Assembly: GCA_041946855.1 (NCBI GenBank) | Contig: JBHGBE010000003.1 | Coordinates: 47,662-111,661 of the forward strand | Length of the DNA: 64,000 nt | Source of the DNA: Phycisphaerae bacterium | Lineage (GTDB): Bacteria; Planctomycetota; Phycisphaerae; SM23-33 | Reading direction: 5' to 3' | Shown here: in pieces, positions 822 through 56,900 of the stretch | Layout: each line of letters starts with the position of its first letter | Position numbering within the stretch: position 1 is the first letter of the stretch | The notes under the pieces: model-generated | What the model saw: only the letters and a program-made list of their open reading frames with translations | Told to the model about the DNA's origin: nothing | The model's database searches: none | Position numbers and translations under genes: made by a program

Positions 822-956
822 CGGCGATGAAGGTTGGGTCCTCTGCAACGTCGTGCCGTGAACCTGGTCAGGTCCGGAAGGAAGCAGCCATAAGCGTGCC
901 AGCGACGTGTGCCGGAGGGTCGCCTGACTGGAGCCGTTCGACCTGGCGGACCCCGT
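822..956 (+). ncRNA. ffs: Signal recognition particle RNA (4.5S/ffs-type)
   Basis: The conserved domain IV motif GGUCAGGUCCGGAAGGAAGCAGCC lies at about 869-892. GCAACG and GUGUGCCGG blocks and the terminal pairing GGGUCC...GGACCC match E. coli 4.5S RNA. The RNA sits immediately upstream of dnaX, as in the conserved ffs-dnaX-ybaB-recR arrangement. The ends are approximate. Confidence 0.75.
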
Positions 957-990
957 GGAAAGCAATTCCAAGCGGAGTGCACGGCATTTT

Positions 991-1117
991 TTGTTGTCGA
1001 TTGACGATTTTCGATTGGCGATTGAACCGCGCGGCCGGCCTCTGGATAATCATCTCCGCGCCGGTTCAAGCGGCGGCATAGGTCAATCGAAAATCGACAA
1101 TCGTAAATCGGCAATCG
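991..1117. repeat. Inverted pair of 7-nt-periodic tandem arrays (GATTGNN units at 991-1027, CAATCNN units at 1079-1117) flanking a roughly 50 bp spacer
   Basis: Direct reading gives tcgattgacgattttcgattggcgattg and, downstream, caatcgaaaatcgacaatcgtaaatcggcaatcg, which is its reverse complement. The element lies between ffs and the dnaX start codon. Confidence 0.8.
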
Positions 1118-1119
1118 CT

Positions 1120-3036
1120 ATGGCCGGATATCTCGTCCTCGCCCGCAAGTACCGCAGCACCACCTTCGACGAAGTCGTGGGCCAGGAGCCCATCGCGCGG
1201 ACGCTGACCAACGCGATCAAGACCGGCCGGGTCGCCCACGCGTACCTTTTCACCGGGACGCGCGGCGTCGGCAAGACGACGATGGCCCGCATCCTGGCCA
1301 AGGCCCTCAACTGTCTGAACTCCGACGGGCCGACCGTCAAGCCCTGCAACAAGTGCGAGTCCTGCCAAGCGATCATGCGCGGGGATGACATCGACGTCAT
1401 CGAGATGGACGGCGCATCGAACCGCGGCATCGACGAGATTCGCGACCTTCGCGCGAACTCCATATTCCGACCGGCGCGCAGCCGCTTCAAGATCTACTAC
1501 ATTGACGAGGTCCACCAGGTCACCAGGGATGCCTTCAACGCACTCTTGAAGACGCTGGAGGAGCCGCCGGAGCACGTGAAGTTCATCTTCGCCACCACAG
1601 AGGCGGAGAAGGTCCCCGCGACGATCCTCTCGCGGTGCCAACGGTACGACTTCCGCAACATCCCGTCGCGCAAGATCGCCGCGCACCTGAAGGAGCTGTG
1701 CAAGGCCGAGAACGTCGAGGTGGACGATGACGCCCTCTTTCGCGTGGCGCGAGCGGGGGCCGGGTCGATGCGGGATGCCCTGAGCCTGCTGGACCAGCTC
1801 ATCGCGGCCGGCGCTGGAAAGGTGGCCGACGCCGACGTGGTGCGACTCCTGGGCACGCCGGCGGAGGAAAAGACGCTGGCCATCGTGACGGCCATCGCCG
1901 CTAGCGACGCGGCCGCGGCGCTTAAGGGACTCAACGAGGTGATCGAAAGCGGCATTTCGCTGGCCAGCGCGGCTGCCGCAATTGGCGACATCTTCCGCAA
2001 CATGATGCTGGCCTCCACGTGCGGCGCGGACAGTGATCTGATCGAGCTGCCGGACACGCAGCGTGCGGCCGTCGGAGAGCTGGCGAAGAAGTTCACCACG
2101 CCGGCCATCGTGCAGATGGTCGGCCTGTGGCAGTCGCTACAGTACAAGTTGCGCGGCACGAGCGTCGCGCGGGCGCTGATGGAGGCGGCGCTTGTGCGGC
2201 TGGCGATGGCGGACAAGTTCGTGGACCCCGCGAGCCTGCTCGAGCGCCTGGAGGCGATCGGCGGTGGCGTGGGCGTGCCGCCCGCGAGTCGAGCCGGCGT
2301 CTCGCCGGCTTCCGGGCCGGCCGCGGCGCCGACACGATACGGCCTGTCGCCCTCCTCGGCGGCGAACTTAAAAAGAAACTTCGCGGTGAGCCTGGCCGCG
2401 GGACTTAGCGCGCCCCCGGTCGGCGCAGGCCCCAGCGTCTCCACGCCGGCCCCGTCCGCCGGCCCGCTCCCGTCGACGACAACTCCTCCCCTGCCTTCAA
2501 GCGCGCCGGCGACGCCGATCCAGTGGAACCTGGCCTGGCTGGCCGCCAACTGGCCGCGGGTGATCGAAGGTCTGACCGCCGCTCGTCAAATGCAGGTGGC
2601 GGGCCTCTTGCGCGTGGCGACGGTGAAGTCGTTCGATGGCGCGGCGCTGGCGCTAGGCTTCGACGTGGCCAACGAGACGCTCCGCCAGCGCGCCGCCGCG
2701 ATGGCCACAACCGTCAACGCTGCGCTGTCCGCAATGGCGGGCCGAGACATCCGCTGCGATTTTCTAAGCACGGTCAACGGGACCGCGCCGGGCGCCGCGC
2801 GTCCCGCCATGGCCGGCGCATCGCCTGCCGGAGGCACCGGCTTCTCTACCGGCGCAGCGGGCAATGGGGCGGGCTTCGCCAACGGCCGGCCCGCCCGCGC
2901 CATGCCCGTCCTAAGCACGGCCGAGAAGGCCGAGATCATGAAGGACCCCGCAGTCCAGGCTGTACTATCCGCCTTTGGCGGGGAGGTGGTTGACATCCGC
3001 AAGGACGCGGCAGTCGCCGACGCTCCGGAAGAGTGA
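1120..3036 (+). CDS. dnaX: DNA polymerase III subunit gamma/tau
   Basis: The N-terminus MAGYLVLARKYRSTTFDEVVGQE, the Walker A motif GTRGVGKTT, the Zn-finger cysteines CNKCESC and the full AAA+ clamp-loader domains are present. The 955 start in the ORF track is an upstream artefact that reads through the repeat and the 3' end of ffs. Confidence 0.95.
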   Translation: MAGYLVLARKYRSTTFDEVVGQEPIARTLTNAIKTGRVAHAYLFTGTRGVGKTTMARILAKALNCLNSDGPTVKPCNKCESCQAIMRGDDIDVIEMDGASNRGIDEIRDLRANSIFRPARSRFKIYYIDEVHQVTRDAFNALLKTLEEPPEHVKFIFATTEAEKVPATILSRCQRYDFRNIPSRKIAAHLKELCKAENVEVDDDALFRVARAGAGSMRDALSLLDQLIAAGAGKVADADVVRLLGTPAEEKTLAIVTAIAASDAAAALKGLNEVIESGISLASAAAAIGDIFRNMMLASTCGADSDLIELPDTQRAAVGELAKKFTTPAIVQMVGLWQSLQYKLRGTSVARALMEAALVRLAMADKFVDPASLLERLEAIGGGVGVPPASRAGVSPASGPAAAPTRYGLSPSSAANLKRNFAVSLAAGLSAPPVGAGPSVSTPAPSAGPLPSTTTPPLPSSAPATPIQWNLAWLAANWPRVIEGLTAARQMQVAGLLRVATVKSFDGAALALGFDVANETLRQRAAAMATTVNAALSAMAGRDIRCDFLSTVNGTAPGAARPAMAGASPAGGTGFSTGAAGNGAGFANGRPARAMPVLSTAEKAEIMKDPAVQAVLSAFGGEVVDIRKDAAVADAPEE

Positions 3037-3087
3037 CATTGTTTGGGGTCCGGTGGCTATAATCCAACCGAACCTGTGAGGTAACCT

Positions 3088-3411
3088 ATGTTCGGCGACA
3101 TTGGAAAGATGTTCAAGCTGGCCGGCGAGATGAAGCGGAAGATGCCCGAAGTGCAGGCGAGGCTGGCCTCCAGCACTTACACGGCCGACGCCGGCGGCGG
3201 GGCGGTGTCGGCCACAGTCAACGGCAGGCTGGCCCTGGTGGATGTGAAAATCGCCCCGGCCGTCCTGGCCGACTGCGACGCCGCCATGCTCGAGGACCTG
3301 GTCAAGGCCGCCGTGGCGGCCGCTCAGGACAAGGCCGCTCGCGCCGCCGCGGAGGCCATGAAGGAACTGACCGGCGGTATGCCTCTGCCTGGGCTGGAGG
3401 GGATGTTCTGA
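3088..3411 (+). CDS. ybaB: Nucleoid-associated protein YbaB/EbfC
   Basis: The protein is 107 aa with the typical YbaB sequence and lies between dnaX and recR. Confidence 0.85.
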   Translation: MFGDIGKMFKLAGEMKRKMPEVQARLASSTYTADAGGGAVSATVNGRLALVDVKIAPAVLADCDAAMLEDLVKAAVAAAQDKAARAAAEAMKELTGGMPLPGLEGMF

Positions 3412-4011
3412 TTGGCCGGATATCCGCACATAATAGAACGTCTCATAGCGGAACTCGGCCGCCTGCCCGGCATAGGGGCGCGGTCCGCCGAGCGGCTGGC
3501 GTTCCACATCCTCAAGACGACGGATGTCGAGGCGCTGGGCCTGGCCGACGCCATCCGCGACGTGAAGACCAAGGTTCGCCCATGCACGCGGTGCTTCAAC
3601 ATCGCCGAGGGCGAGCTTTGCGACATCTGCGCCGACCCGCGGCGCGACACGAGCGTCTTGGCGGTGGTCGAGCAGCCCAAGGACCTGCTTGCGCTGGAAT
3701 CGACCGGGGCGTACCGCGGCCTCTACCACGTGCTGATGGGCCACATCGCACCGCTTGAGGGCGTGGACGCCGAGCACCTGACCATCGACGCGCTGGTGGC
3801 CCGCGTCAAGGCCGGCGGCGTCAGCGAGATCATCCTCGCCACCAACCCCAACGTCTCCGGCGACGGCACGTCGCTGCACATCGCCTCCCTGCTGGAGCCG
3901 CTGGGCGTGAAGATCACGCGCTTGGCCCGCGGCCTGCCCGCCGGCGGACAGATCGAGTACGCCAGCAAGTCGATACTCACAGACGCGATCACGGAGAGGA
4001 AGAAGCTGTGA
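3412..4011 (+). CDS. recR: Recombination protein RecR
   Basis: The HhH motif, the C4 zinc finger CTRCFNIAEGELCDIC and a Toprim domain are present. The start is TTG, overlapping the ybaB stop. Confidence 0.95.
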   Translation: MAGYPHIIERLIAELGRLPGIGARSAERLAFHILKTTDVEALGLADAIRDVKTKVRPCTRCFNIAEGELCDICADPRRDTSVLAVVEQPKDLLALESTGAYRGLYHVLMGHIAPLEGVDAEHLTIDALVARVKAGGVSEIILATNPNVSGDGTSLHIASLLEPLGVKITRLARGLPAGGQIEYASKSILTDAITERKKL

Positions 4012-4016
4012 ACTGC

Positions 4017-4048
4017 CGATTGTAGATTGCAGATTGCAGATTGAACTG
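4017..4048. repeat. 7-nt tandem array (gattgta gattgca gattgca gattgaa)
   Basis: Direct reading shows the array between the convergent recR and XRE genes. Confidence 0.8.
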
Positions 4049-4052
4049 CGGG

Positions 4053-4325
4053 TCACTTCCCCGCCAACGCCCGCTCAATCTTCAGCAAGGTTTCCTGCCG
4101 AGGAACATGCTTTCCCGACTCGATGCGGCTGATCGTCTCCAGGCGGACGCCGGCGCGGCGGGCCAGTTCGGTCTGCGTCCAGCCGCGACGGATGCGGGCC
4201 TCGGCCAAGTCGCGTGCGATTGAGACATTTATGGCCTCGCGCGCTGGAAAGTTGCCGTTCGCGTCGGCGCGCGGATATTGGGGCAACGCCTTGGCCATTG
4301 GCACAATGATAGCAATAGCATCCAA
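4053..4325 (-). CDS. XRE-family helix-turn-helix transcriptional regulator
   Basis: The HTH_XRE core WTQTELARRAGVRLETISRIESGKHVP is present. The gene diverges from the methyltransferase-UbiA gene. Confidence 0.7.
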   Translation of the reverse strand: MDAIAIIVPMAKALPQYPRADANGNFPAREAINVSIARDLAEARIRRGWTQTELARRAGVRLETISRIESGKHVPRQETLLKIERALAGK

Positions 4326-4441
4326 AGCTATAACACACGCAGATTATAATCCCCCGCGTGGAATCTGCGGAGAGACCTTGTGAGCATTCTGGCAACAACA
4401 AAAGGCACTGGCCCGCCCTCGCGTTCCGCATCGTCTCGATC

Positions 4442-6205
4442 ATGTTCCGCCATCCGCAGCGGACGGACGAACTGGTCAGCCGCAGCTATGATCGCATCGC
4501 GAGCGGGTATGAACGCGCGTGGACGGACCACAACCGCGGCCTGTCAGTCGAGATGCTGGACCAGCTCGGAGTCCAGCAGGGCGCGGAATGCATCGACCTG
4601 ACGTGCGGGACGGGGTCTGTGGCCGGCGAGCTCAAGCGGCGCGGTGCCGGCCGTGTCGTCGGCGTGGATGCCTCCGAGGGGATGCTCGCCGAGGCAAGGA
4701 AGAACCACCACGACTGCACGTTCATCCAGAGCGACGCGGTTGACTACCTGCGGTCCTGTCCGGCGCAGAGCGCCGACGTCGTGACGTGCGCATGGGGCCT
4801 GGGCTACACACGGCCGTGGGCGGTCATCAGGCAAATCGCCCGCGTCCTCCGACCCGGCGGCCGGGTGGGCATTATCGACAACGGCCTGTTCTCGCTTGCC
4901 GAGGTGCTTTGGTCGGCGATGCTCGCCTTCGCCGAGCGCCCATCCTCCCTGGCTCACGTGATGAACTTCCGCTTTTTGCCGACCTCCGGCGCGATGGCGA
5001 CACTGATGCGCCTCGCCGGCTTTTCGGTGCGGAGGCAATGGAGCGGCAAGTGGACCTACTTCGTTCGCGACGGCCGGGCGGCCATCGAGCGCCTCACCGC
5101 GACCGGCGCGGCCGCCGGCTTCGAGTTCGCCGCGACGGACAGCGAGCGCGACGCAGTCTTCGACCGCTTCGCCCAGATCCTCGAGGCACGGTTCGCAACG
5201 TCGCACGGAGTGCCGATTACGCATCGGTACATTGCGGCAATCGGGCAGAAGCCGATTTCGGATTTCGGAATTCGGATTTCGGATTCCTGCGGTTGGCGGA
5301 CAAGGCGCCGTGCATGGCAATCCGAAATCCGAAATGGTGGTCGGAGGAATCTCTCGATGAAGGCAGGGCCGCTCTTCAATCTGGCGCGCCTCTGCCGCCT
5401 GTACTACGCAGCGCCCATGTCATTGGCATACCTGCTGACCGTCTACTACGCCCGCGGAGGGGACATGGCCGGCCAGTGGCCCGCCGCGGCCCTTTCGACG
5501 GCCTTGCTGGCGATGGTCATAGCGGGCGGCTACGCGCTCAACGACTACTACGACCGCCGGGTGGACCTCGCCAACGCCCCCGCACGGCCGATACCTGCCG
5601 GGCGGGTCAGCCCGCGCGCCGCGATGCTGACGGGCGTGCTGCTGATAGTGGCCGGCGCAGGCCTGGCGCGGCTGTGCAGCCTGTGGTTCTTTGTCGGCTT
5701 GACGTGGCTTGCCGTGGCGCTGACCGTGTACGACATCCTCTCGAAGCGCCTGGGCCCGGCCAAGCAGGTCGCCGTCGCGGCGCTGATGACGAGCATCTAC
5801 CCGTTGGCGATCGCGCAGGCAGGCACGGCCGCCGGGCCGCGTGCGGCGACGCTGGCGGTCTTCCCCGCGTGGCTGTTCCTGACGAGCCTGGGCTACGAGA
5901 CGCTCAAGGACATCCGCGACGTCTCCGGCGATCCGCTCATCGCCGGCCGGCCCTCGCCCATCCGCCGCAGGCCGGGCATGTGGCGGGCAATCTCCCGCAT
6001 CGCCGTCCTCTGCGGCGCGGCGCTCCTCGTCGGGCCGTTCATACTCGGCTGCAAGTGGGTCTACATGGCCGGCGCGGGCGTCGCGATGGCGCTGGCCGTC
6101 GCTGCCGCCTTCGTCCCCGTGCGGACCGCGATTCGCCTGGTCTACGCGGAGTGCTTCATCGTCGGCCTCGCCGCCGCCTTGGACGTGCTTGTTTTTGGGG
6201 TCTGA
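4442..6205 (+). CDS. Class I SAM-dependent methyltransferase fused in frame to a UbiA-family prenyltransferase
   Basis: The N-terminal part carries a Rossmann methyltransferase motif (IDLTCGTGSVAGEL...VLRPGG). The C-terminal part carries the UbiA motifs NDYYDRRVD and YETLKDIRDVSGD plus several TM helices. The two halves are joined by the 7-mer repeat at 5254-5337. There is no in-frame stop, but an internal ATG at 5357 is preceded by GGAGGA, so separate expression of the UbiA half is possible. The upstream start is uncertain (4358 or 4442). Confidence 0.55.
   Translation: MFRHPQRTDELVSRSYDRIASGYERAWTDHNRGLSVEMLDQLGVQQGAECIDLTCGTGSVAGELKRRGAGRVVGVDASEGMLAEARKNHHDCTFIQSDAVDYLRSCPAQSADVVTCAWGLGYTRPWAVIRQIARVLRPGGRVGIIDNGLFSLAEVLWSAMLAFAERPSSLAHVMNFRFLPTSGAMATLMRLAGFSVRRQWSGKWTYFVRDGRAAIERLTATGAAAGFEFAATDSERDAVFDRFAQILEARFATSHGVPITHRYIAAIGQKPISDFGIRISDSCGWRTRRRAWQSEIRNGGRRNLSMKAGPLFNLARLCRLYYAAPMSLAYLLTVYYARGGDMAGQWPAAALSTALLAMVIAGGYALNDYYDRRVDLANAPARPIPAGRVSPRAAMLTGVLLIVAGAGLARLCSLWFFVGLTWLAVALTVYDILSKRLGPAKQVAVAALMTSIYPLAIAQAGTAAGPRAATLAVFPAWLFLTSLGYETLKDIRDVSGDPLIAGRPSPIRRRPGMWRAISRIAVLCGAALLVGPFILGCKWVYMAGAGVAMALAVAAAFVPVRTAIRLVYAECFIVGLAAALDVLVFGV
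5254..5337. repeat. Inverted pair of 7-nt arrays (cgatttcggatttcggaattcggatttcggattc ... caatccgaaatccgaaatgg), located intragenically in frame
   Basis: Direct reading shows the element at the methyltransferase/UbiA domain junction. Confidence 0.8.
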
Positions 6206-6231
6206 AGACTCACCACAAAGGGCACGAAGTC

Positions 6232-7472
6232 TCAAAGGAGCTGCTTACTACTTTGGTGTTCTTCGTACCCTTTGTGGTGAATCCTTTTCTTATCCTTCAG
6301 CAGTCTCCGGTACACCTCCGGCATTGGCTCGCCAGGCCCGCGCGCCGGGCACATGACCTCGCTCCGCTCGCGAGGCAGAGGAAGCCCGCACGCCCCGTCG
6401 AACTTGCCCGCGATGCGGCCCATGAGGCACCCGCAGCGCGGGCGCGAGAACCACTGGCCCATCCGCCGCCAGATTTCGGCCAGCGGCTCGGCCGTCGCGT
6501 TCCCGAATGAAAGCGGCGTCAGGTCGCAAGGGCAGACCTCGCCGCCAGAGTCGATGAACAGGTGGTGGTAGCCCGCCCCGCAGCCGAACATCGCGTCCGA
6601 CTCCAGGTACGCGAAGCTCGCGACGGCCGGCCGCCCGCGCCCGCAGTTGTGCCGCACGTGAAAGTCGTACAGCGCCTGCCGCTCGTCGCCCGTGAGCATA
6701 AGCGCCGCGCACCCGGCCGCCTGCCCTGTCGCCACAGGCGCTAGCAGCCGGAACTCGACAGCGCCCCAGCCATCGGCCAGCTTGTACATCGTGTCCAGTT
6801 CGCCCGAGGCGATCTTCTCGCGCGTGCCGATAGTCGATATCGCGGCATACAGGCCCGCGTCGCGGCAGGCACGCACCGCGTCCATCGCTTCCGTGAACGA
6901 TCCGCGCGCGCCGCGGACCTCGTCGTGCCGCAAGGGGTCGGCCGACTCTATGCCCACGGTCACGCACGCCACGCCCGCCTCGGCCAGCCGGCGGGCACGG
7001 GCCGCATCCAGGCGATGGCCGGTGGTGAAGACAATCGTCGCCATCTCCGGCCGGCACGCGGAGGCGAGTTCCTCCAGGTCATCGCGCAGGAGCGGCTCGC
7101 CGCCCGTGAATCCAAGCGTGCAGGTCCCAAGGGCCTTGATCTGCGATATCAGGTCGAGCATTTGGCCGCGCGTAAGCTGGCCGCCGCGCCGCCGGCCGTA
7201 GGAGCAGTGGGGGCAGCGGAACGGGCAGCCCGATGTCGCCGCCAGGTACGTCGAGAACGGCACGCGCCTCCGCCCGATGACCGCGCGGAGGAACCGCCCG
7301 AACGCCTCCGACGGGTGCGGCGGGAAAAACGTGTTGATCCGCATCTGCCCGCCGAAGTGGTGCGGCTTCTCGTTCCGCATCCGCCGCAGAAGATACCACA
7401 GGTGCCTCGCCGGCAGCCTCCCGACGGCCGGGAGGAACATCCGGGCGATGTGGAAATAGTCACGGAGCTTCA
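6232..7472 (-). CDS. Radical SAM protein with a C-terminal SPASM/twitch-like Cys-rich domain
   Basis: The CxxxCxxC motif appears as CPFRCPHCSY. The C-terminal Cys cluster is CGAGYHHLFIDSGGEVCPCD...PRCGC. The ATG start at 7472 overlaps the stop of the upstream membrane-protein gene (ATGA). Confidence 0.8.
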
Positions 7473-8015
7473 TGTGGGCCCTTCGGGCATCGCGCTCGTC
7501 TTGAACGCGACCTTTACAGCCAGTTGCAGTGCGATGCCGAACAACGTGCCGACGATCGCGCCTGCGGGCAGACCTAGGACTATCGCGAACATCGCCAAGC
7601 ACCAGACCTCGACATCCTGGCCGATAACTGATTGCAGGACCCAGTGAAGGATGATAGTAGCGGCCACCCCGACCGAGGCGCCGGCGGCCGCGCCGGCCCA
7701 CGTGAGCTTACCTTCGGTGCTTCTTGCCTTCCTCTCGCGCCTGACCGCGAAGGGGACCATGATGATGCACCAGAGCGAACTCGCAAGGAGGCCCAGGCAA
7801 AGCCCAGCCCTGACCCCTGTGTCATCGAGTGCCTGCTCAAATGATACCGGATCGTCGAAAGTCGCCGTGTGTGATGCGTAGGGAATGTAGAGGGTGATCC
7901 TGTAGTAGGCGGATGCGAAGGATCCGATCAGCCCGGTTATCGGCGTAACGACGACAACCACCGCCGCAACAAGGAACGCCAGCGGCCAGCGGCGGAATGC
8001 CTGTTGCTGATCCAC
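7470..8015 (-). CDS. Small polytopic membrane protein (paralog of the upstream gene)
   Basis: The protein has about 4 TM helices. A GTG start at 8015 overlaps the stop of the upstream paralog, and the stop overlaps the radical SAM start. The start codon is uncertain. Confidence 0.4.
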   Translation of the reverse strand: MDQQQAFRRWPLAFLVAAVVVVVTPITGLIGSFASAYYRITLYIPYASHTATFDDPVSFEQALDDTGVRAGLCLGLLASSLWCIIMVPFAVRRERKARSTEGKLTWAGAAAGASVGVAATIILHWVLQSVIGQDVEVWCLAMFAIVLGLPAGAIVGTLFGIALQLAVKVAFKTSAMPEGPT

Positions 8016-8497
8016 TATCCCCTTCTCCGCACCGCCAGCCACGCCGCCAATGCACAGAGCCCGCCGCACACCAATCCCACGACCACGCCCGCCGGCGCGC
8101 CGAAGACCAGCGCGGCAAGCAGGCCATTGGCCCTGACTTGCCCCAGGAATGCCCACAGCCCCACATGGACGCACAGTGCGCTTGCGCTGCCGACGGCCGT
8201 GCCCCAGCCAAGGCCAAGGACCATGACGACGCCCGCCCTTCCTTGGCTCACCAGGCGCAGCGAGGCGCGGAACATCAGCCGGCACCAGACAAGGCCCGCT
8301 GCCAGGCCAAGCAGGCCGCCGATCAAGCCCCCGAAGTGGGCCAGGCCAAGGGCACGGCCATCCGGCGCATCGTATATGGCTGTTGCCAGCATGCCGAAGA
8401 ACGCGCCGGTGAGCGTTCCTGCGAAGCAAACGAAGACGCCCAGTATTGTCAACGGCCACATGCTGTGCCTGGACGTGATATCAGCCGATGGTTCCAT
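8015..8497 (-). CDS. Small polytopic membrane protein (paralog)
   Basis: The protein has about 4 TM helices and is Gly/Ala/Leu-rich. Its WPL...GxxxG pattern is shared with the 7470-8015 product. It is the first gene of an apparent three-gene operon. Confidence 0.4.
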   Translation of the reverse strand: MEPSADITSRHSMWPLTILGVFVCFAGTLTGAFFGMLATAIYDAPDGRALGLAHFGGLIGGLLGLAAGLVWCRLMFRASLRLVSQGRAGVVMVLGLGWGTAVGSASALCVHVGLWAFLGQVRANGLLAALVFGAPAGVVVGLVCGGLCALAAWLAVRRRG

Positions 8498-8558
8498 GGA
8501 TCACCTCTGGCCGCGCTAGGCGCGCGACGGTACTCTACCGCGCCAAGGGCGCTACTTC

Positions 8559-8677
8559 TATGGAGTGCGGCGGCACAGTCCCGGAGGGACTCGACGCCGC
8601 TTTCGTATTCTCCGTCGTTCAGGAGGCGAGTCATAGCGGCGTCGCGTCGCTTCGCGTCTTTGCCGCCGCACTCCATA
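8559..8677. repeat. GC-rich palindromic element, copy 1 (intergenic)
   Basis: The terminal inverted repeats are ATGGAGTGCGGCGGCACAGTC ... TTTGCCGCCGCACTCCATAG, with an internal imperfect palindrome CGACGCCGCTTTCG/CGAAGCGACGCGACGCCGC. The copy lies in the divergent promoter region between the membrane/radical SAM operon and rpoN. Confidence 0.8.
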
Positions 8678-8766
8678 GGAATGCCCCTTGTGATCTTCGT
8701 GCCCTTTGTGGTGAAGCATCCCCGGCCGTTGTCCGATTCTGATTCAAGGCGTAGAATGGAATCGTC

Positions 8767-10260
8767 ATGAGGCTCGATACGTCGCAACAACTTCGCCTTG
8801 AGCAGTCGATGAGGCTCTCGCCGCGGATCATCCAGGCGATGGAGATACTCCAGCTTCCGACGATGGCTCTGCTGGAGCGGATCGAGGCGGAGATGCAGGC
8901 CAACCCCGTCTTGGAGCTTCGCGAGGGCGGCGACGAGGAGCCTTCCACCACGCCGGCCGAGACGGGCGGTGCGGCGGAGCAGGACGCCACCGACGGCGAG
9001 CGGCCGCTGGTGGTCAAGGAGGGCGACGGCCACACGGAGGACTTCCAGCGCCTGGCCGACTACGAGGAGGAGTTCGACCCGTGGGCCGGTCCCGGCGGCG
9101 GTCAGCCACGCGCGTCCGCGGCTCCCGGCGAGCGCGACAGGAAGATGGACGCGATGGCCAACACGCCCGCGCCAGAGCAGCCGCTCGACGAGTACTTGAT
9201 GGGCCAGTGGGCGTTCGTCGAGGTCCCGCCGGCCGTAAAGGAGGCGGGCAGGCTCATCATCAACCGCATCGAGGATGATGGTTACCTCAAGACGCCGCTG
9301 GAAGACATCGCCAAGGAGACCACCCCGCCGACGGACCTTGCGGTGCTCGGCGAGGCCCTGCGGCTGATTCAGACGCTGGACCCTATCGGCGTGGGCGCTC
9401 GCGATCTGAAGGAGTGCCTCCTTATCCAGCTTGCGGCCGAGGAGACGGCCGGGCGCAACGTGGAGCTTGAGCGGCTGATCGTGGAGCGGTACCTCCGCGA
9501 CATCGAGATGAACCGCCTGCCTGCCATCGCCGCGCGGACGGGCAAGACCATCGAGCAGGTCAAGGCGGCGCTGGAGACGATCTCGCACCTGAACCCGCGG
9601 CCGGGCACGCTGGTCGGCCAGCGGGCGGCGCCGGTGATCGCCCCGGACATCACAGTGCGGCTGGGCGACGACGGCGAGCCGGTCATCACGATGGACGACG
9701 GCGCCGCGCCTGCCATGCACATCTCGCGGATGTACCGCAAGCTGGCCAAGGACCGCCGCACCGCCCGCGAGGCCCGCGCGTTCCTCCAGCGCAACATCCG
9801 CTCGGCCCAGTGGCTCATCTCGGCCATCCAGCTCCGGCGGCAGACCGTCCGCCGCGTGGCCGAGGAGGTGTTCAAGGCCCAGCGCGACTTCCTGGCCGAA
9901 GGCCCGCAGGCCCTGCGGCCGCTGCCGATGATGGATGTGGCCAACAAGGTAGGCGTACACATCGCGACCGTCTCGCGCGCGGTGGCGGGCAAGTACGTCC
10001 AGACTCCCTGGGGCATCTTCCCGCTGCGGATGTTCTTCGCCGGCGGCACTACCACCGCGGGCGGCGAGGACATCGCCTACGAGGCCGTCCGCGTCCGGCT
10101 CAAGGAGCTGGTCGACGCCGAGGACAAGTCCGCGCCGCTTGATGATGACAAGCTCGCCAAGGAGCTCGAGAAGCACGGCATCAAGATCGCCCGGAGGACG
10201 GTGGCGAAGTATCGCGACCTGATGGATATCCCGCCGGCGAGGAAGCGAAGGCAGTTCTGA
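8767..10260 (+). CDS. rpoN: RNA polymerase sigma-54 factor
   Basis: The N-terminal Gln/Leu-rich activator-interacting region, a core binding domain, the HTH and the RpoN box ARRTVAKYR are present. Confidence 0.95.
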   Translation: MRLDTSQQLRLEQSMRLSPRIIQAMEILQLPTMALLERIEAEMQANPVLELREGGDEEPSTTPAETGGAAEQDATDGERPLVVKEGDGHTEDFQRLADYEEEFDPWAGPGGGQPRASAAPGERDRKMDAMANTPAPEQPLDEYLMGQWAFVEVPPAVKEAGRLIINRIEDDGYLKTPLEDIAKETTPPTDLAVLGEALRLIQTLDPIGVGARDLKECLLIQLAAEETAGRNVELERLIVERYLRDIEMNRLPAIAARTGKTIEQVKAALETISHLNPRPGTLVGQRAAPVIAPDITVRLGDDGEPVITMDDGAAPAMHISRMYRKLAKDRRTAREARAFLQRNIRSAQWLISAIQLRRQTVRRVAEEVFKAQRDFLAEGPQALRPLPMMDVANKVGVHIATVSRAVAGKYVQTPWGIFPLRMFFAGGTTTAGGEDIAYEAVRVRLKELVDAEDKSAPLDDDKLAKELEKHGIKIARRTVAKYRDLMDIPPARKRRQF

Positions 10261-14400: not shown

Positions 14401-14512
14401 CAGAATGCCCAATGTCTAATGCCAAATGTCTAAGGAAGGCCAAAGGGCAAGCGTCTCAATGCTCGCCATCGGTGATTGGTTAGACATTAGGCATTTGGCA
14501 TTAGACATTGAG
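14401..14512. repeat. Inverted pair of 7-nt arrays (AATGNCN units: cccaatgtctaatgccaaatgtctaa ... ttagacattaggcatttggcattagacattg)
   Basis: Direct reading shows a perfect inverted arrangement flanking a 45 bp spacer. Confidence 0.85.
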
Positions 14513-16696: not shown

Positions 16697-16750
16697 CGAG
16701 CGGGATTATAGCCCCGAAGTGGCGCGGGGGGCAGGGAGGACCGGCGCAAT

Positions 16751-16854
16751 GGAAGACTGGAGGACGGGAGGAAGGGAGGACTAAAGGAAGGGCATCGGTC
16801 TCCAGTAGATTCCTCCTCCCCTCTTCCCTTCCTCCCGTCTTCCCCTCCCTCTCT
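16751..16854. repeat. Inverted purine-rich / pyrimidine-rich low-complexity arms (gggaggaagggagga ... tcctcccctcttcccttcctccc)
   Basis: Direct reading shows them in the intergenic region between rsgA and nfo. Confidence 0.7.
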
Positions 16855-17924: not shown

Positions 17925-18476
17925 ATGGCCAAGTCTTGCGAGACATTCGATCACACGGCCGATGTTGGCCTGGCGGCGCGGGCGGACACGCCGGGGGAGC
18001 TGTTCGAGGCGCTGGGCGAAGGATTGGCCGATTACATCTGCCCGCGCACGACCGTCCGGCCGCGCGAGAAGCGGACACTGACGGTCGAGGCCGAGGACGT
18101 CGAGGCGTTGGCGGTCGATTTCCTGGCGGCACTGCTCAACGTGATTCAGGCGGACAGGTTCATGGTGACGGCCGTGAGCGTCATGGAGTGCGGCGGCACA
18201 GTCGCGCAGCGACACGGCGCCGCTCTGGCTGGCGCCGATGAAGGTGATTCTCCACGCAAGAGAGACTCGGCCGGTGCAGCCAAAGCGGTGTCGCGTCCCT
18301 TCGGGACTTTGCCACCGCACTCCAAAGTCAAAGTGACGGCCGAGTTGACGGGTGAGCCGTTCGATGCGTCCCGCCACGAGATTCACACGGAGGTCAAGGC
18401 CATCACCTACCATTTGCTGAAGGTTTCGCAGGAGCAAGACGGCACTTGGATAGGCCGGGTGATACTGGATCTGTGA
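17925..18476 (+). CDS. Archease (RtcB activator) carrying an in-frame palindromic-element insertion
   Basis: The N-terminal FDHTADVGL, EAEDVEALAVDFLAALL and the C-terminal EVKAITYH are archease hallmarks. The segment MECGGTVAQRHG...PPHSKV is encoded by palindromic element copy 2. Confidence 0.8.
   Translation: MAKSCETFDHTADVGLAARADTPGELFEALGEGLADYICPRTTVRPREKRTLTVEAEDVEALAVDFLAALLNVIQADRFMVTAVSVMECGGTVAQRHGAALAGADEGDSPRKRDSAGAAKAVSRPFGTLPPHSKVKVTAELTGEPFDASRHEIHTEVKAITYHLLKVSQEQDGTWIGRVILDL
18183..18326. repeat. GC-rich palindromic element, copy 2 (inside archease, in frame)
   Basis: The termini ATGGAGTGCGGCGGCACAGTCGCG ... TTTGCCACCGCACTCCAAAG match copies 1 and 3. Confidence 0.8.
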
Positions 18477-19985: not shown

Positions 19986-19989
<4 letters not shown>

Positions 19990-20167
19990 TTGACGATTTA
20001 CGATTGCCGATTCAGAGCCGCAACTCCCCTTCGCCTCGCCCGGCGCAATCATGTTCAATGCCCTTGCAAAAACCGGCCCAGCGGATAATACTGGTTCGAT
20101 TGTGCCTGCGGCGACGGCGCCGGTGGGCCGTGTGAATCGTCAATCGACAATCGTCAATCTGCAATAG
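19986..20167. repeat. Inverted pair of 7-nt arrays (gattgacgatttacgattgccgattc ... gaatcgtcaatcgacaatcgtcaatc) flanking a roughly 115 bp spacer
   Basis: Direct reading shows the pair. Confidence 0.85.
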
Positions 20168-32078: not shown

Positions 32079-32080
<2 letters not shown>

Positions 32081-32200
32081 TTGTGGATTGTGAATTGTGG
32101 ATTGTGGATTGTGTATTTCCCCGTGCCAGCATTGACCCGCGGATAGCCGGCCGAGCCCGTCGATGGAAATCCACAATACGCAATTCACAATTCACAATAT
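32079..32200. repeat. Inverted pair of 7-nt arrays (gattgtggattgtgaattgtggattgtggattgtg ... cacaatacgcaattcacaattcacaat)
   Basis: Direct reading shows the pair between hscA and fdx. Confidence 0.85.
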
Positions 32201-32800: not shown

Positions 32801-33537
32801 CGGTAACGTCCCGTTCTCCAGGCGAATCGGACAACCGAAGCAACGGCCGCGCCTACTGACATCGCCACAGCCGCGACGCCGGCGGCGCCGATCACCGCCC
32901 AGAACCACCAGCCCAGGCCGCCAAGGACGTCGAACGCGGCCGCGATCGCCGCCAACGCAACCGGCGCGGCGATGGCCCGAAGTGCGTTACCCAGTACGCG
33001 AGGAACCCATGTGGAGTGCGGCGGCCGTGACGCCGCTTTGGATGTTCGATGTGTCGCGGCAAGTGAAAGCGGCGTCGTGTCGCTTCGCGACTGTGCCGCC
33101 GCACTCCATAGGCACTCCCGCCACAGATACGCGCTCGCGCCGATAAGCCACAGCACGGCGACGTGGCCGGTCCACAAACCGCAGAGCATCCGCCAGCGCG
33201 GGCCGATGTCGATGATGTGCAGGCCGCCGAGCATCGCTGCCGCCAGGCAAAGGATGTTGACCGCCAGCACACTCGCGCTCAGCGGCCACCGCAGCTCCAG
33301 CCCACGCGGCTCCGCCCCGCTCCGCCGCAGGCCGCTTCGCCAACGGCCGCGCCGCGCCAGGCCCCCTTGCGCCAGGCCGCTCCGCCAGATCCAAGACGCG
33401 ATCAGCCACGCCATCGTCAGCGCCGCGCCGGCGTACAGGCCCAGACACCGCTGGCAGACCGGCAGCGCACGGCCGTCGACGACGAAGCACCGCCCCTGGC
33501 CGCACAGGTGGGAGAAGATGTCCGCAATCAGGTCCAC
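32782..33537 (-). CDS. DUF2085-family membrane protein carrying an in-frame palindromic-element insertion
   Basis: The N-terminal motif CGQGRCFVVDGRALPVCQRCLGLYAG is present. Palindromic element copy 3 lies inside the ORF and is translated as SAAAQSRSDTTPLS.... Confidence 0.5.
   Translation of the reverse strand: MDLIADIFSHLCGQGRCFVVDGRALPVCQRCLGLYAGAALTMAWLIASWIWRSGLAQGGLARRGRWRSGLRRSGAEPRGLELRWPLSASVLAVNILCLAAAMLGGLHIIDIGPRWRMLCGLWTGHVAVLWLIGASAYLWRECLWSAAAQSRSDTTPLSLAATHRTSKAASRPPHSTWVPRVLGNALRAIAAPVALAAIAAAFDVLGGLGWWFWAVIGAAGVAAVAMSVGAAVASVVRFAWRTGRYRQCVSL
33009..33110. repeat. GC-rich palindromic element, copy 3 (inside the DUF2085 gene, in frame)
   Basis: The termini TGGAGTGCGGCGGCCGTGACGCCGCTTT ... 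GCGACTGTGCCGCCGCACTCCATAG match the other copies. Confidence 0.8.
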
Positions 33538-40873: not shown

Positions 40874-41839
40874 CTACTCGCGGTCAGGCCATTGGCCCGA
40901 GAACACCTCGACCGCCGGGCCGGTCATGTACACGCGGTTGTCGGACTGCCGCCATTCCAGTTCCAGTCCGCCGCCGGGCAGGTGGGCGACGATCCGCCGG
41001 CCGGTCCGCCCGGTGAGCACGCCCGCGACGCAGACGGCCGATGCGCCGGTCCCGCAGGCCAGCGTCACGCCGCTGCCGCGCTCCCACGTCCGCATCGTCA
41101 CTTCGCTCGCGGATTGCACCTGGACGAAGTGGACATTGACCCGCTTCGGGAATACCGGGGCGCGCTCGATAACAGGGCCGACCATTTCCAGGGGCACCGC
41201 CGCCACATCCTTGGAGTAGATCACCACGTGCGGATTCCCCATTGAGACGCAGGTCATGCGGGTAATCGGTGAATCGGTCAACTGGTCAATCGGTGAATCG
41301 GTGAATCGCTTGACCGGGGAACCCTCGACCATGGCCCCCCGACTAACCGATTCACCGATCAACCGATCAACCCTGACGTACTTGTCAAGCGGCAGGTCCA
41401 CTATCTTGTCCAAGGACTCAGCGCCCGGCAGCACGACGGGAATGTCGGCCGGCTTGAGCACCGGCTCGCCCATATCAACCGTGGCTGCCGTGACCTTGCC
41501 GTCGGGACCTAGCCTCAGGTCGATGGTCTTGACGCCGCTGGCCGTCTCGACGCGCATCGGGTTGGCCCGCGACAGTCCGTGGTCGTATGCGTACTTGGCC
41601 AAGCACCGGATGCCGTTGCCGCACATGAGGCCCTCGGACCCGTCGGCGTTGAACATCCACATGCGGACGTCGGCGGTGCGGCTTGGCATGATGAGGATCA
41701 GGCCGTCGGACCCGACGCCGAAGTGCCTGTCGCTGACCGCCCTGGCCAGCGCGGAGGCGCCCTTCGGGTCGATCTGCTGGTTGAAGCAGTCGACGTAGAC
41801 ATAATCGTTGCCCGCGCCTTGCATCTTCGTGAAGCGCAT
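40874..41839 (-). CDS. dapF: Diaminopimelate epimerase carrying an in-frame 7-mer repeat insertion
   Basis: GAGNDYVYVD, the catalytic Cys motifs MCGNGIRC and ACGTGASA, and SMGNPHVV are present. A roughly 33 aa insert encoded by 41262-41378 sits where E. coli DapF has about 9 aa. Confidence 0.9.
   Translation of the reverse strand: MRFTKMQGAGNDYVYVDCFNQQIDPKGASALARAVSDRHFGVGSDGLILIMPSRTADVRMWMFNADGSEGLMCGNGIRCLAKYAYDHGLSRANPMRVETASGVKTIDLRLGPDGKVTAATVDMGEPVLKPADIPVVLPGAESLDKIVDLPLDKYVRVDRLIGESVSRGAMVEGSPVKRFTDSPIDQLTDSPITRMTCVSMGNPHVVIYSKDVAAVPLEMVGPVIERAPVFPKRVNVHFVQVQSASEVTMRTWERGSGVTLACGTGASAVCVAGVLTGRTGRRIVAHLPGGGLELEWRQSDNRVYMTGPAVEVFSGQWPDRE
41262..41378. repeat. Inverted pair of 7-nt arrays (aatcggtgaatcggtcaactggtcaatcggtgaatcggtgaatcg ... 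aaccgattcaccgatcaaccgatcaacc) inside dapF, in frame
   Basis: Direct reading shows the pair. Confidence 0.85.
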
Positions 41840-53937: not shown

Positions 53938-56900
53938 ATGCGTTGTTACGTCGGGATTGACATAGGCGCGGTCAGCGCCACGGCGGCCCTGCTGGTGGAG
54001 GGCGACGGCGAGGGCCTGCTGGCGCGGTTCGGCGGCCAGTTCGCGGAGGCGGATGCGGCCGTGCCGGGTCGCCGCCTGTACCTCAGCCAATATCGCCGCA
54101 CCAAGGGTAAGCCCCTGGCGGCCGCCACGGAACTCCTCGAGCAGATCATCGCCGCGCTGGGCGCTGACGCCGTAGCGGGTATCTGCATGACCGGCAGCGG
54201 CTCGAAGCTGGCGGCCGACAAACTCGGCTCGGCCGTCGTCAACGAATTCAAGGCCATCGCGGCGGGCCTGTCGGCGGTGGGGTGCAATCCACGGACGGTC
54301 TTCCAGATGGGCGGGGAAAGCTCCAAGTACCTGCGCCTCTCGCGCGGCGGACCCGGCTCGCCGGAGGTCGGCATCGTCGATTACTCCACCAACGGGGATT
54401 GCGCCGCCGGGACAGGCTCGTTTCTCGACCAGCAGGCCGGGCGGCTGAAGTTCGCCGTCGAGGACATCGGGCGGATCGTGCTGGCTGCCGACCGTGCGGC
54501 CCAGGTCGCCGGGCGGTGCAGCGTGTTCGCCAAGAGCGACATGATCCACGCCCAGCAGAAGGGCTACACGCCGGCCGAGGTGCTCCGCGGCCTGTGCAAC
54601 GCGGTGGCGCGGAACTTCAAGACCGCCGTCGTGCGTTCGCACCCGGTCGAGGCGCCGGTGGCGTTCATCGGCGGCGTGGCGGCCAACGCCGCGGTCGTCC
54701 GCGCCATGAAGGAGATGTTCGACCTGGGCGATTCCGATTTCATCGTGCCCGCGGCGTTCGCGCACACGGGCGCGATAGGGGCGGCCGTGGCGGCCTCAAA
54801 GGCGCAGGCGCCGGTCGGCCTGTCGCGCATGGGCGAGCTTCGGGCCGCAAGCGACACCGCGCACGGCGCATTCCCCCGCCAGGCGCCGCTGGTGATGGAC
54901 AACGTGCTGCTCCTGCGCGACCGCGTCGACGCCTACGAGGCGCCCTACGGCGACCAGAAGATCGACGCCTGCCTGGGCCTCGATGTCGGCAGCGTCTCAA
55001 CGAACGTCGTGGCCGTCGACGAGGACGGCCGGGTCATCAAAGAGATCTACGTCCGCACGCAGGGCCGGCCCATCGAGGTAGTGGCCGATGCGCTGGAGGA
55101 GGTCCGGCGCGAGTGGGGCGAGCGGCTCAACATCCGCGGCGTGGGCACCACCGGCAGCGGGCGCGAGCTGATCGGCGAGCTCGTCGGCGCGGACACGGTC
55201 AACGACGAGATCACCGCCCACAAGACCGGCGCCATGTCGGTCGGGCAGAAGATGCTCGGCGGCCGCGTGCCCGACACGATCTTCGAGATCGGCGGGCAGG
55301 ACGCGAAGTTCATCTCGCTCCAGGACGGCATCGTCGTGGACTTCACGATGAACGAGGCGTGCGCGGCCGGCACGGGCAGCTTCCTGGAGGAGCGGGCCGA
55401 GGAGCTGGACATCTCCATCATCGGCCAGTTCGCGGAGATGGCGCTTTCCAGCCCCGCGCCCATCCGCCTGGGCGAGCGATGCACCGTGTTCATGGAGCGG
55501 GACGTCAACAGCTACCTCCGGCGCGGCGCGAACAAGGCGGACCTGGTGGCGGGCCTGGCGTACTCGGTGGTCTACAACTACATCAACCGCGTGGTGCGGG
55601 GGCGGAAGATCGGCGACTGCATCTTCTTCCAGGGCGGCACGGCGTACAACGACGCCGTGGCGGCCGCGTTCTCGGCCGTCACGGGCAAGCAGATCATCGT
55701 TCCACCGTACAACGGCGTCATCGGCGCAATCGGCGCGGCGCTCCTGGCGTGGGACAAGATGAACGGCAATTGCCGATTGCCGATTGCCGATTCTCGATTG
55801 GCCGGCGGAGGCAACGGTGACAAGGCCGCCAAGACTTTGAAAGATGTTCCGCCAGACGGTGGCAGGAACCTGGGCGTCTACGTCTCCGAACTGGCGAAGG
55901 CGGCTGGAGCGACGAGCAATCGTCAATCGCCAATCGTCAATCGCCAATCTCGTTTCCGCGGCTACGACATGTCCAAGGTCGATTACAAGCTGCGGGAGTT
56001 CATCTGCAAGGGCTGCTCCAACGCCTGCCAGATACAGGAATTCGACGTCGAGGGCGAGAAGACCTACTGGGGCGACAAGTGCTCCGACCGCTACCGTAAG
56101 CGGGCCAAGGCCGCGACCAAGCCGGTCATCGAGGACCTGCTGGCCCTGCGGATGAAGCTGCTGCTCGATGAGTCGGCCCTGCCGCCCGCGCCAGCGGCCG
56201 CGCCCGCGGTCGGCATCCCCATGACGATGTTCGCGTGGGAGACGCTGCCGTTCTGGCGGACGTTCCTGGCGCACTGCGGCTATCGCACCGTCCTGTCGGA
56301 CCAGACCAACAAGAAGATCACGCAGGCCGGCCTTGAGAGCGTGGTGGCCGAGCCGTGTTTTCCCATCATCGTCGCCCACGGGCATGTCCTGGACCTGGCC
56401 GGCAAGGCCGTGGACTTCATCCTGCTGCCCAACACGCTGTCGATGGAGACACGCTGGCTGTACACCGAGTCGCACCTGTGCCCCTGGCACCAGACGATGC
56501 CCTTTGTCATCCGCCAGGCGCCGGCCATCCAGGGGCACAGCGCGAAGTTCCTCGCGCCCACTGTGCGCTTCCGCGAGGGCCGCGGGAACGTGCTGAAGGA
56601 GCTTGGCGAGTACTTCGCGCCGCGGGGCATCTCCTACGCCGCGCTGGAGCGCGCGGTGACGGCCGGGTTCGAGGCGCAGGACAAGTTCCGCGAGGCGGTG
56701 CTGGCCGCCGGACGGCAGGCACTCGAGGCGCTCGACCGCGCCGGAGCGCCGGGGATCGTCCTTGCGGGCCGGCCGTACAACGTGCATGACGCCGGGGTCA
56801 ACCTCTCGGTGGGGCGCAAGCTGCGGGATACGTACGGCGTCAACTGCGTGCCGATGGACTTCCTCGACACGGCCGGCATCGACGTCCGCGACATCAACGA

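Follow-up and report, generated by a model that had tools for sequence, protein, structure and literature searches.

Do the genes at positions 4053-8497 of a 64-kb stretch of planctomycete DNA form a biosynthetic unit, and if so, what could that unit make? The stretch, referred to here as the window, belongs to a metagenome-assembled genome (MAG) of a Phycisphaerae bacterium (GCA_041946855.1, contig JBHGBE010000003.1). A first-pass annotation had described in it a class I S-adenosylmethionine (SAM) methyltransferase fused to a UbiA-family prenyltransferase and facing an operon of two membrane proteins and a radical SAM enzyme. Its sequence features were all found again, in place or displaced by a few bases, by reading of the DNA and by Pfam and NCBIfam scans of the open reading frame (ORF) translations. 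Comparison with related loci indicates that positions 4442-8497 hold a single copy of a module of four gene families that is typical of uncultured Planctomycetota, most of them anaerobic. Its enzymes belong to familiar superfamilies, while their conserved combination is uncharacterised and includes a new family of membrane proteins. The impression that the gene combination resembles no characterised pathway is borne out in that curated models stay below cut-off for every enzyme and no description was found in the literature; searches of the literature on UbiA and radical SAM enzymes or DGGGPS in Planctomycetes, on ladderane clusters and on butanetriol lipids yielded no account of the module.

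The forward strand carries a single uninterrupted frame of 587 amino acids (aa) at 4442-6205, which encodes the methyltransferase followed by the UbiA prenyltransferase. Convergent with it, the reverse strand carries two genes for proteins with four transmembrane helices (4-TM), paralogue 1 (8015-8497, 160 aa) and paralogue 2 (7470-8015, 181 aa, GTG start), and the gene of a 413-aa radical SAM enzyme (6232-7473). The last three form an operon in which, as had been claimed, the stop codon of one gene overlaps the start codon of the next: in TAGTG at 8013-8017 the stop of paralogue 1 overlaps the GTG start of paralogue 2, and in ATGA at 7470-7473 the stop of paralogue 2 overlaps the start codon of the radical SAM gene. 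Paralogue 2 is called identically in an independent assembly, and NCBI holds the fused protein and the first membrane protein as MAG proteins.

The conservation of this arrangement was followed by two independent samplings. Scanning one genome per GTDB species for the radical SAM gene yielded 68 loci, 60 of them at >= 40% identity. Where enough downstream DNA was available (44 loci), the methyltransferase and UbiA genes lie convergent with the radical SAM gene in 28, and the methyltransferase is present without UbiA in 7; the 4-TM family is found in 41 of 56 loci. When metagenomes were sampled by UbiA, with a separate denominator for each family, every locus had the methyltransferase (56/56), while 50/53 had the radical SAM gene and 44/46 the 4-TM family. 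Co-occurrence of UbiA with the 4-TM family is strong (28/0 versus 2/13; Fisher p = 3e-9, not corrected for phylogeny), indicating that the 4-TM family follows UbiA and not the radical SAM gene, 13 loci of which are without 4-TM genes. All-against-all clustering of the neighbouring ORFs gave no fifth conserved family.

The 68 GTDB loci come almost entirely from Planctomycetota MAGs (Phycisphaerae, Sedimentisphaerales, Pirellulales, Thermoguttaceae and one labelled Brocadiaceae), with a few under other labels, and the habitats of the carriers are mostly dark and anoxic: anaerobic digesters, sediments and groundwater. The module is found between unrelated flanking genes, as a comparison of loci L009 and L007 illustrates. 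Judged from the gene content of the sampled loci, the four families (methyltransferase, UbiA, 4-TM and radical SAM) are co-conserved. The proposal that they constitute a linked biosynthetic unit gains from this very strong co-conservation, from the varied flanks and from an independent fusion of the radical SAM enzyme with the methyltransferase, a 670-aa protein of Sumerlaeota (P0014) that bears the signature motifs of both families.

The distribution also shows a hierarchy among the four families. Radical SAM gene and methyltransferase occur without UbiA or the 4-TM family in seven loci of the Planctomycetota type, four of which are labelled Thermoplasmatales or Thermoplasmatota. More distant homologues are found in Victivallales, Lentisphaerae and Clostridium MAGs, where both genes lie on one strand with the methyltransferase first. 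In terms of gene content across these loci, the radical SAM enzyme and the methyltransferase are the core pair, and UbiA and the 4-TM proteins are gained and lost together.

Some of the reduced loci have features of their own. In two loci labelled Thermoplasmatales, at 29-34% GC (L062:3297-10056 and L047:8001-12862), the radical SAM and methyltransferase genes, here without the module's UbiA or 4-TM family, are adjoined by a conserved 225-aa protein and a class I/II aminotransferase. Farther along, L062 also carries a MenA-like prenyltransferase (139 bits) and an NDH-2-like flavoprotein. In a Victivallales MAG, two tandem paralogous membrane proteins of 429 aa, which match no Pfam family, immediately precede the distant methyltransferase-radical SAM pair (L073:4234-6834), echoing the tandem-paralogue pattern of the planctomycete module.

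The membrane proteins had been described as two paralogous four-helix proteins of roughly 160-180 aa. At 181 and 160 aa their pairwise similarity is weak (32% identity over 102 aa, E 7e-4), and they can be regarded as paralogues because profile searches seeded with either converge on one and the same family. Its members measure 150-190 aa and display four predicted helices, glycine-zipper patterns and a single invariant histidine in helix 3, encoded at 7644-7646 in paralogue 2 and at 8165-8167 in paralogue 1. Besides this histidine only two glycines are invariant, and the five further positions conserved to >= 90% are all glycines. One to four copies stand in tandem directly upstream of the radical SAM gene, most commonly joined to it by the 4-nt ATGA overlap. 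Among 1.84 billion proteins the family amounts to 126 representative clusters. No Pfam or NCBIfam model was found to match it; scanning member by member against Pfam gave scattered weak matches (FtsX in 5/36, best E 6e-4), which were treated as noise, and a word-indexed homologue search with the 4-TM protein retrieved that protein alone. An AlphaFold2 (AF2) prediction of the 4-TM protein from two sequences reached a mean predicted local distance difference test (pLDDT) score of 64.6, too low to support a comparison by fold. From their sequences, the 4-TM proteins form a new small family.

A longer variant of the 4-TM protein occurs in relatives of lower GC content. There, one of the paralogues has 430-450 aa, and extra N-terminal helices and a pseudopilin-like domain (DUF1559/H-X9-DG; motif e.g. 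NLSGLGKA...H-x9-DG) precede the 4-TM domain. Examples are L042:6189-7544, L055:6248-7558, L061:5804-7234, L043:6092-7438 and L039:4410-5756, among others.

The enzymes offer more detail about the chemistry that could be expected, and their catalytic motifs are intact in the predicted translations. The UbiA portion (5357-6205, 282 aa) belongs to its superfamily by the PF01040 match (91.6 bits against a cut-off of 34.2) and by two Asp-rich motifs, NDYYDRRVD at 5540-5566 and YETLKDIRDVSGD at 5894-5932; N62, D63, D66, D70, K184, D185, D188, G191 and D192 are invariant in 16 family members. Its best NCBIfam matches are PRK12884 (95 bits, cut-off 269) and two further DGGGPS models (80.4 bits against 296 and 61.6 against 353), followed by ChlG (54 bits), BchG (51 bits), heme O synthase (32 bits) and EboC. 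With scores so far below the equivalog cut-offs, DGGGPS is the nearest branch and not the identity of the enzyme. Among the 17 NCBIfam matches at E <= 0.01, no MenA, UbiA (4-hydroxybenzoate) or MqnP model appears, and a sequence search of the PDB gave DGGGPS and chlorophyll synthase as the sole UbiA-family matches. The prenyltransferase groups with the archaeal DGGGPS and chlorophyll-synthase families and not with MenA/UbiA, and the earlier picture, in which a MenA/UbiA-like aromatic prenyltransferase would modify the head group of a quinone, is not upheld. The acceptors known for the DGGGPS/ChlG branch are hydroxyl or carboxyl groups or vinyl carbons, not phenolic rings.

The methyltransferase portion (4442-5254, 271 aa) equals the complete methyltransferase gene of relatives and matches Methyltransf_25 (66.8 bits), Methyltransf_11 (63.6 bits) and Ubie_methyltran; the motif DLTCGTG is invariant in the family alignment, which identifies it as a class I SAM-dependent enzyme. 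It stays below every NCBIfam cut-off. The best matches are UbiE/MenG models (66.4 versus 216 and 65.1 versus 158 bits), with alignments confined to residues 15-146, that is, to the Rossmann half. Full-length alignments were obtained only with the carboxyl O-methyltransferases Tam (44 bits) and BioC (40 bits), both weak. The C-terminal half is specific to the family. Searching the PDB with the family profile likewise gave matches limited to the generic Rossmann half, and for this reason O-, N- and C-methylation are not told apart by that search.

The radical SAM enzyme matches PF04055 with 79.5 bits and carries the CX3CX2C motif as CPFRCPHC (residues 83-90, codons 7204-7227), in which C83, C87 and C90 are invariant across the family alignment. 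The C-terminal SPASM/twitch-like cysteine cluster claimed earlier stands in part. There is a SPASM match (PF13186, 33.5 bits against a cut-off of 21.5), yet no more than four auxiliary cysteines are fully or almost fully conserved (C298, C314, C316 and C349, codons between 6427 and 6582), and the seven-Cys motif of SPASM proteins (CX9-15GX4C...CX2CX5CX3C...C) is absent. Since four conserved cysteines are enough for one cluster, the domain is best described as twitch-like or as a reduced SPASM domain, judging by the alignment, and not as a full seven-Cys SPASM domain. A conserved N-terminal extension of 70 aa with INTFFPPxPS is the hallmark of the family.

Homologues of the enzyme number 1147, and the best 120 of these 1147 share 57-72% identity with it. 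Among curated models, AhbD (101.6 bits versus 500), TIGR04053, NirJ2 (96.6 bits), GeoRSP, PqqE and MftC score about 90-100 bits against cut-offs of 265-500, and all 25 listed NCBIfam matches fall far below cut-off, placing the enzyme outside the characterised equivalogs. The AF2 model (pLDDT 89.5) has neighbours of radical SAM fold. The nearest solved structures to the model are SkfB, SuiB, PqqE and BlsE at TM-scores of about 0.5-0.6, and they indicate a generic twitch/SPASM fold and no specific family. Residues 399-413 form a non-conserved tail with pLDDT < 50, which is encoded by the right arm of the hairpin at 6207-6283. In loci without 4-TM genes, no conserved small ORF was found upstream of the radical SAM gene. 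A 38-aa ORF is called upstream of a stand-alone homologue (L010/L011:6706-6822) and is not conserved in the other loci lacking 4-TM genes.

Whether the fusion of methyltransferase and UbiA has a meaning of its own can be judged from the relatives. The annotation was right that no stop intervenes: within the 587-aa protein, Methyltransf_25/11 covers residues of about 50-142 and UbiA residues 344-557. Used as a query, this protein retrieved itself as the sole fusion, and the close methyltransferase relatives all stand alone. Pairs of the two genes were collected through the radical SAM or methyltransferase genes (44) and through UbiA (69 further), and none of these 113 pairs is fused; each methyltransferase ends with its own stop, and UbiA is a separate gene. 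On the contigs of relatives the order is recR-methyltransferase-UbiA, with recR directly preceding or abutting the methyltransferase and with the start of UbiA overlapped by the methyltransferase stop. The junctions are mostly overlapping or abutting, which suggests that the two genes are translationally coupled in these relatives, and the reading frames differ in all but two of the pairs. The idea of a single polypeptide that both prenylates and methylates, as had been envisaged, is not supported, the fusion being confined to this genome. The annotation had also considered that separate genes in sister genomes, unlinked to the radical SAM operon, would weaken its proposal; they are indeed separate there, yet remain co-conserved with that operon.

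The junction in the window offers an explanation for the exception. Methyltransferases of relatives terminate in ...THRYLAAIGxK(x) and a stop, while that of the window continues past ...IGQKP into a linker of 34 codons (5255-5356) without protein-like character. As the annotation recognised, the linker is a heptamer element, composed of GATTTCG x4.6 at 5254-5285 and an inverted array of AATCCGA x2.4 at 5319-5335. The resulting hairpin element spans 5254-5335, leaves no methyltransferase stop at the junction and folds as RNA with -53.2 kcal/mol (z = -3.5); none of the related pairs has such a hairpin there. UbiA retains an internal start, as predicted, with the Shine-Dalgarno sequence GGAGGA at 5343-5348, a spacing of 8 nt and the ATG at 5357. 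Deleting one heptamer in silico makes the methyltransferase stop coincide with the TGA of the ATGA on the UbiA start, which is the arrangement of the relatives; adding one leads the methyltransferase into a long out-of-frame ORF. The in-frame fused state hinges on heptamer copy number. In our reading, the fusion is a one-off of this genome, a by-product of a repeat hairpin that was inserted at the coupled junction and removed the stop, and it is tolerated rather than selected.

An adaptive bifunctional enzyme is an unlikely alternative to such an accident, though it has points in its favour. The uninterrupted ORF is identical in two assemblies: the Logan assembly of run SRR29307520 agrees over 5461 bp, the fused ORF included. 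It is therefore no artefact of a single assembler, although the same reads underlie both assemblies, and it is probably real in the population and could be functional. Cooperating partner genes are known to fuse, as P0014 illustrates, and the topology of UbiA-family proteins is compatible with an N-terminal cytoplasmic fusion. These points have to be set against the unfused state of all other pairs, a linker that is a repeat hairpin of the type recurring along the window and no conserved peptide, a frame dependent on repeat copy number, and a UbiA portion that has kept its own ribosome-binding site and ATG. A metagenome scan allowing variable repeat length gave no copy-number variants at the junction. 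Understood as an accident, the fusion illustrates clearly, on a small scale, how hairpins of intergenic repeats can join neighbouring genes, and it advises caution, as fusions of this kind in MAGs may hinge on how many copies of a short repeat are present.

Turning to function, we lean, by a narrow preference, towards the general statement that the module would make a prenylated, methylated membrane compound anaerobically. In this proposal, UbiA would work at the cytoplasmic face of the membrane and, like its nearest relatives, O-prenylate an acceptor with a hydroxyl or carboxyl group. The methyltransferase would methylate the same molecule, on which the radical SAM enzyme would also perform an oxygen-independent radical step, either an oxidation or C-C/C-H chemistry. 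The 4-TM proteins may act as membrane partners of UbiA that bind, scaffold or move the product, which would be a membrane lipid or a lipid-anchored cofactor of anaerobic Planctomycetota. That this product is specifically an isoprenoid lipid of the ether or ester type is our leading guess, held with far less confidence than the general statement. Tentatively, and with more doubt than belief, one may go further and suppose an undescribed lipid or lipid-anchored cofactor characteristic of anaerobic Planctomycetota, with the radical SAM-methyltransferase pair as a new two-enzyme tailoring unit shared with a few other anaerobic lineages. Archaeal-style isoprenoid ether chemistry in a bacterial phylum, or a prenylated tetrapyrrole held by the His-bearing 4-TM proteins, would be examples of such a product.

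Several observations weigh against the proposal of a prenylated, methylated membrane compound. Neither a methyltransferase nor UbiA lies nearby in 9 of the 44 radical SAM loci, and the co-occurrence statistics carry no correction for phylogeny. The carriers are all MAGs, none of them a cultured host, with taxa taken from MAG labels. Some lineages have the radical SAM gene and the methyltransferase alone, which means that the core chemistry could do without a prenylated substrate. The O-prenylation step is read solely off the best-scoring UbiA branch, at a score far below cut-off (95 versus 269), and the radical SAM enzyme has structural neighbours of a generic kind, headed by peptide maturases and not by lipid enzymes. 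None of the components attains a curated equivalog cut-off that would assign a substrate or product. A link to quinones is kept alive by the archaeal-labelled L062, which has a MenA-like gene near the methyltransferase.

If a distinctive isoprenoid lipid or cofactor is made, the module would offer a genetic handle on the membrane biochemistry of a large group of anaerobic Planctomycetota, most of them uncultured. Two wider questions could be touched as well, namely how far bacterial and archaeal lipid chemistry overlap and where orphan biomarkers come from. In addition, the comparison defines three previously undescribed families (4-TM, radical SAM and methyltransferase), the latter two of which are linked by fusion in another phylum.

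Other functions can be weighed against the same evidence. By analogy with BchM, BchE and BchG, the module might tailor a tetrapyrrole: the methyltransferase would methyl-esterify a propionate, the radical SAM enzyme would alter a side chain, the ChlG-like UbiA would esterify a carboxylate with a prenyl tail, and the 4-TM paralogues with their histidine would bind the lipophilic tetrapyrrole. This possibility draws on AhbD and NirJ2 as the top curated matches of the radical SAM enzyme, on the ChlG, BchG and heme O synthase matches of UbiA, on the full-length alignment of the methyltransferase with carboxyl O-methyltransferases, and on a 4-TM family with tandem paralogues and a single invariant transmembrane histidine. 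All of these scores fall well short of cut-off and do not surpass those of peptide-maturase or DGGGPS models, the BchM model reaches only 27 bits, and no conserved tetrapyrrole gene lies nearby. With a logic that is one of analogy, we consider tetrapyrrole tailoring distinctly unlikely.

Tailoring of a quinone, in which a MenA/MenG-like pair would prenylate and C-methylate the head group of a naphtho- or benzoquinone, whose ring the radical SAM enzyme would build or modify, appears quite improbable. Prenyltransferase and methyltransferase are the classic late pairing of menaquinone synthesis, the best curated matches of the methyltransferase are UbiE/MenG models (66 and 65 bits), and the MenA-like gene of L062 (139 bits) lies three genes from the methyltransferase. 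That neighbour belongs to a different UbiA family, however, and is found at one locus only. UbiA itself is on the DGGGPS/ChlG branch without any MenA, UbiA (4-hydroxybenzoate) or MqnP match, the UbiE match covers the generic Rossmann half only (66 versus 216), and the radical SAM enzyme is of the twitch/SPASM type, with MqnC and MqnE not among its 25 best curated matches.

A pathway of polyprenyl-phosphate sugars for the envelope, similar to that of mycobacterial decaprenyl-phospho-arabinose, would have UbiA move a sugar phosphate to polyprenyl phosphate, the radical SAM enzyme and methyltransferase tailor the sugar, and the 4-TM pair flip the product. The sugar-modifying radical SAM enzymes BlsE, DesII and BtrN are among the structural and sequence neighbours, and the small paired 4-TM paralogues resemble ArnE/ArnF- or GtrA-type flippases in size. 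We hold this to be very improbable, as the decaprenyl-phosphate phosphoribosyltransferase model scores 18.5 bits against UbiA, the 4-TM family matches no flippase family and no conserved glycosyltransferase is nearby. Least probable is the modification of a protein or a ribosomally synthesised and post-translationally modified peptide (RiPP), with the tandem small proteins as radical SAM substrates and the methyltransferase and UbiA as tailoring enzymes: RiPP maturases (SkfB, SuiB, PqqE) are the nearest solved structures and one to four rapidly diverging copies do lie directly upstream of the radical SAM gene, but these supposed precursors are polytopic membrane proteins of 150-190 aa whose invariant residues are two glycines and a histidine and which track UbiA, being missing from 13 radical SAM loci where no conserved small ORF takes their place, no conserved protease or exporter is nearby, and the 57-72% identity of the best radical SAM matches resembles that of primary metabolism.

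The surroundings of the module in the window comprise genes and repeats outside the conserved unit. To the left lie dnaX-ybaB-recR (955-4011, forward strand) and a 90-aa XRE/HTH_3 protein (4053-4325, reverse strand; HTH_3 E 7e-16). The annotation had counted the latter as the regulator of the locus. The protein is present as described, and it is no member of the module, since no homologue was found in any of the 159 other related loci; by this distribution, the XRE gene is a lineage-specific neighbour, incidental to the module. To the right, rpoN (8767-10260, forward strand) is divergent from the membrane-protein operon and shares with it the upstream region 8498-8766, which harbors a palindromic element and a copy of a 20-mer. 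A scan of the locus for promoters and terminators gave no more sites than shuffled sequence, and no riboswitch or other known RNA was detected with Rfam in 3900-9000, where merely sub-threshold chance matches fell on the repeat.

A hairpin at 6207-6283, with a 23-bp stem in an inverted repeat that is 91% complementary, separates the convergent UbiA and radical SAM genes. Its RNA folds with -37.7 kcal/mol (z -4.7) and a U-rich tail on the forward strand, and with -48.4 kcal/mol (z -9.3) on the reverse strand, so that it is predicted to be a bidirectional terminator and probably ends both convergent transcripts. The hairpin is built from two copies of the 20-mer TTCGTGCCCTTTGTGGTGAA (6209-6228, reverse strand; 6262-6281, forward strand), and the window has a third copy (8696-8715, forward strand), some 200 nt upstream of the operon with the membrane-protein genes. 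The 20-mer was found in none of the related loci, and it could be a repeat remnant or a candidate local protein-binding site. The palindromic element is dispersed in three copies over the 64 kb (8558-8678, 18181-18327 and 33009-33111); it has two arms of roughly 44 nt starting with CTATGGAGTGCGGCGGCA, its copy at 8558-8678 folds with z = -6.2, and no Rfam family matches it.

Heptamer and octamer arrays recur along the window at 994-1117, 4014-4043, 14404-14509, 19988-20159, 32079-32198, 41264-41372, 55769-55949 and 59730-59833, and also at 16735-16848 and 47494-47600. Each array holds between four and six copies of its unit, which measures 7 or 8 nt, and most are paired with an inverted array 40-150 nt away. 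The unit sequence differs from site to site while the architecture stays the same, and the methyltransferase/UbiA linker belongs to these elements. Checked against the ORF list, the arrays at 994-1117 and 4014-4043 lie outside real coding sequence. The dnaX ORF as listed starts at GTG 955 and passes through the first of them, with the true start probably near MAGYLVLARKY...; here too, at positions 955-1120, an ORF is lengthened by reading through a repeat element.

The module can finally be compared with the systems it most resembles. Like MenA/UbiA with MenG/UbiE, it places a prenyltransferase beside a UbiE-like methyltransferase, UbiE being the best curated match of the latter. It differs in a UbiA that has no detectable similarity to the MenA, UbiA and MqnP models and in a methyltransferase that is far below the UbiE cut-off and has a family-specific C-terminal half. 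With BchM/ChlM, BchE and BchG/ChlG it has in common a class I methyltransferase, a radical SAM enzyme and a UbiA-family prenyltransferase that act on one molecule, as proposed here for the module, with ChlG/BchG as the next-best UbiA matches. BchE, however, is B12-binding, whereas the module's enzyme is twitch-type, and the BchM model gives its low score against the module's methyltransferase. The resemblance to the (bacterio)chlorophyll steps is one of logic only. Phototrophy is argued against by the mostly dark, anoxic habitats of the carriers, other photosynthesis genes not having been searched for.

SkfB, PqqE, SuiB and BlsE are the closest solved structures by both sequence and fold, and they share with the module's radical SAM enzyme the CX3CX2C motif and a C-terminal Cys-rich domain for auxiliary clusters. 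At an identity of about 20% or less and TM-scores of 0.5-0.6 the relation is remote. The module's enzyme has four conserved auxiliary cysteines and its own 70-aa N-terminal extension, and neither a precursor peptide nor a RiPP recognition element partner was found for it; in place of a maturase system, the genes upstream encode polytopic membrane proteins that track UbiA. The lipid-modifying radical SAM enzymes covered in a 2026 review (Tes, Mss, Gms, GrsA/B, Gmm, Cds, HpnH/J/P/R, Jaw5 and ladderane candidates; PMC13459092) resemble the proposed activity in performing radical chemistry on membrane lipids in anaerobes, and Tes and Gms have SPASM-type domains (PMC13459092). No enzyme of the present architecture is among those reviewed, and none is described there with a class I methyltransferase, a UbiA enzyme or a 4-TM partner (PMC13459092). 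With GDGT-MAS (Tes), only the radical SAM core of the module's enzyme aligns (26.6 bits).

The closest parallel for the prenyltransferase is archaeal DGGGPS (PRK12884, PRK12882, PRK12883; PDB 6M31), which provides both its best curated families and its best UbiA-family match in the PDB. Both proteins measure about 280 aa and carry the two Asp-rich motifs NDxxDxxxD and KDxxDxxGD. The module's UbiA scores a third or less of the DGGGPS family cut-offs, its host is bacterial, and the module is without a gene for GGGPS or glycerol-1-phosphate dehydrogenase. In contrast to DGGGPS, it is invariably paired with a methyltransferase and a radical SAM enzyme.

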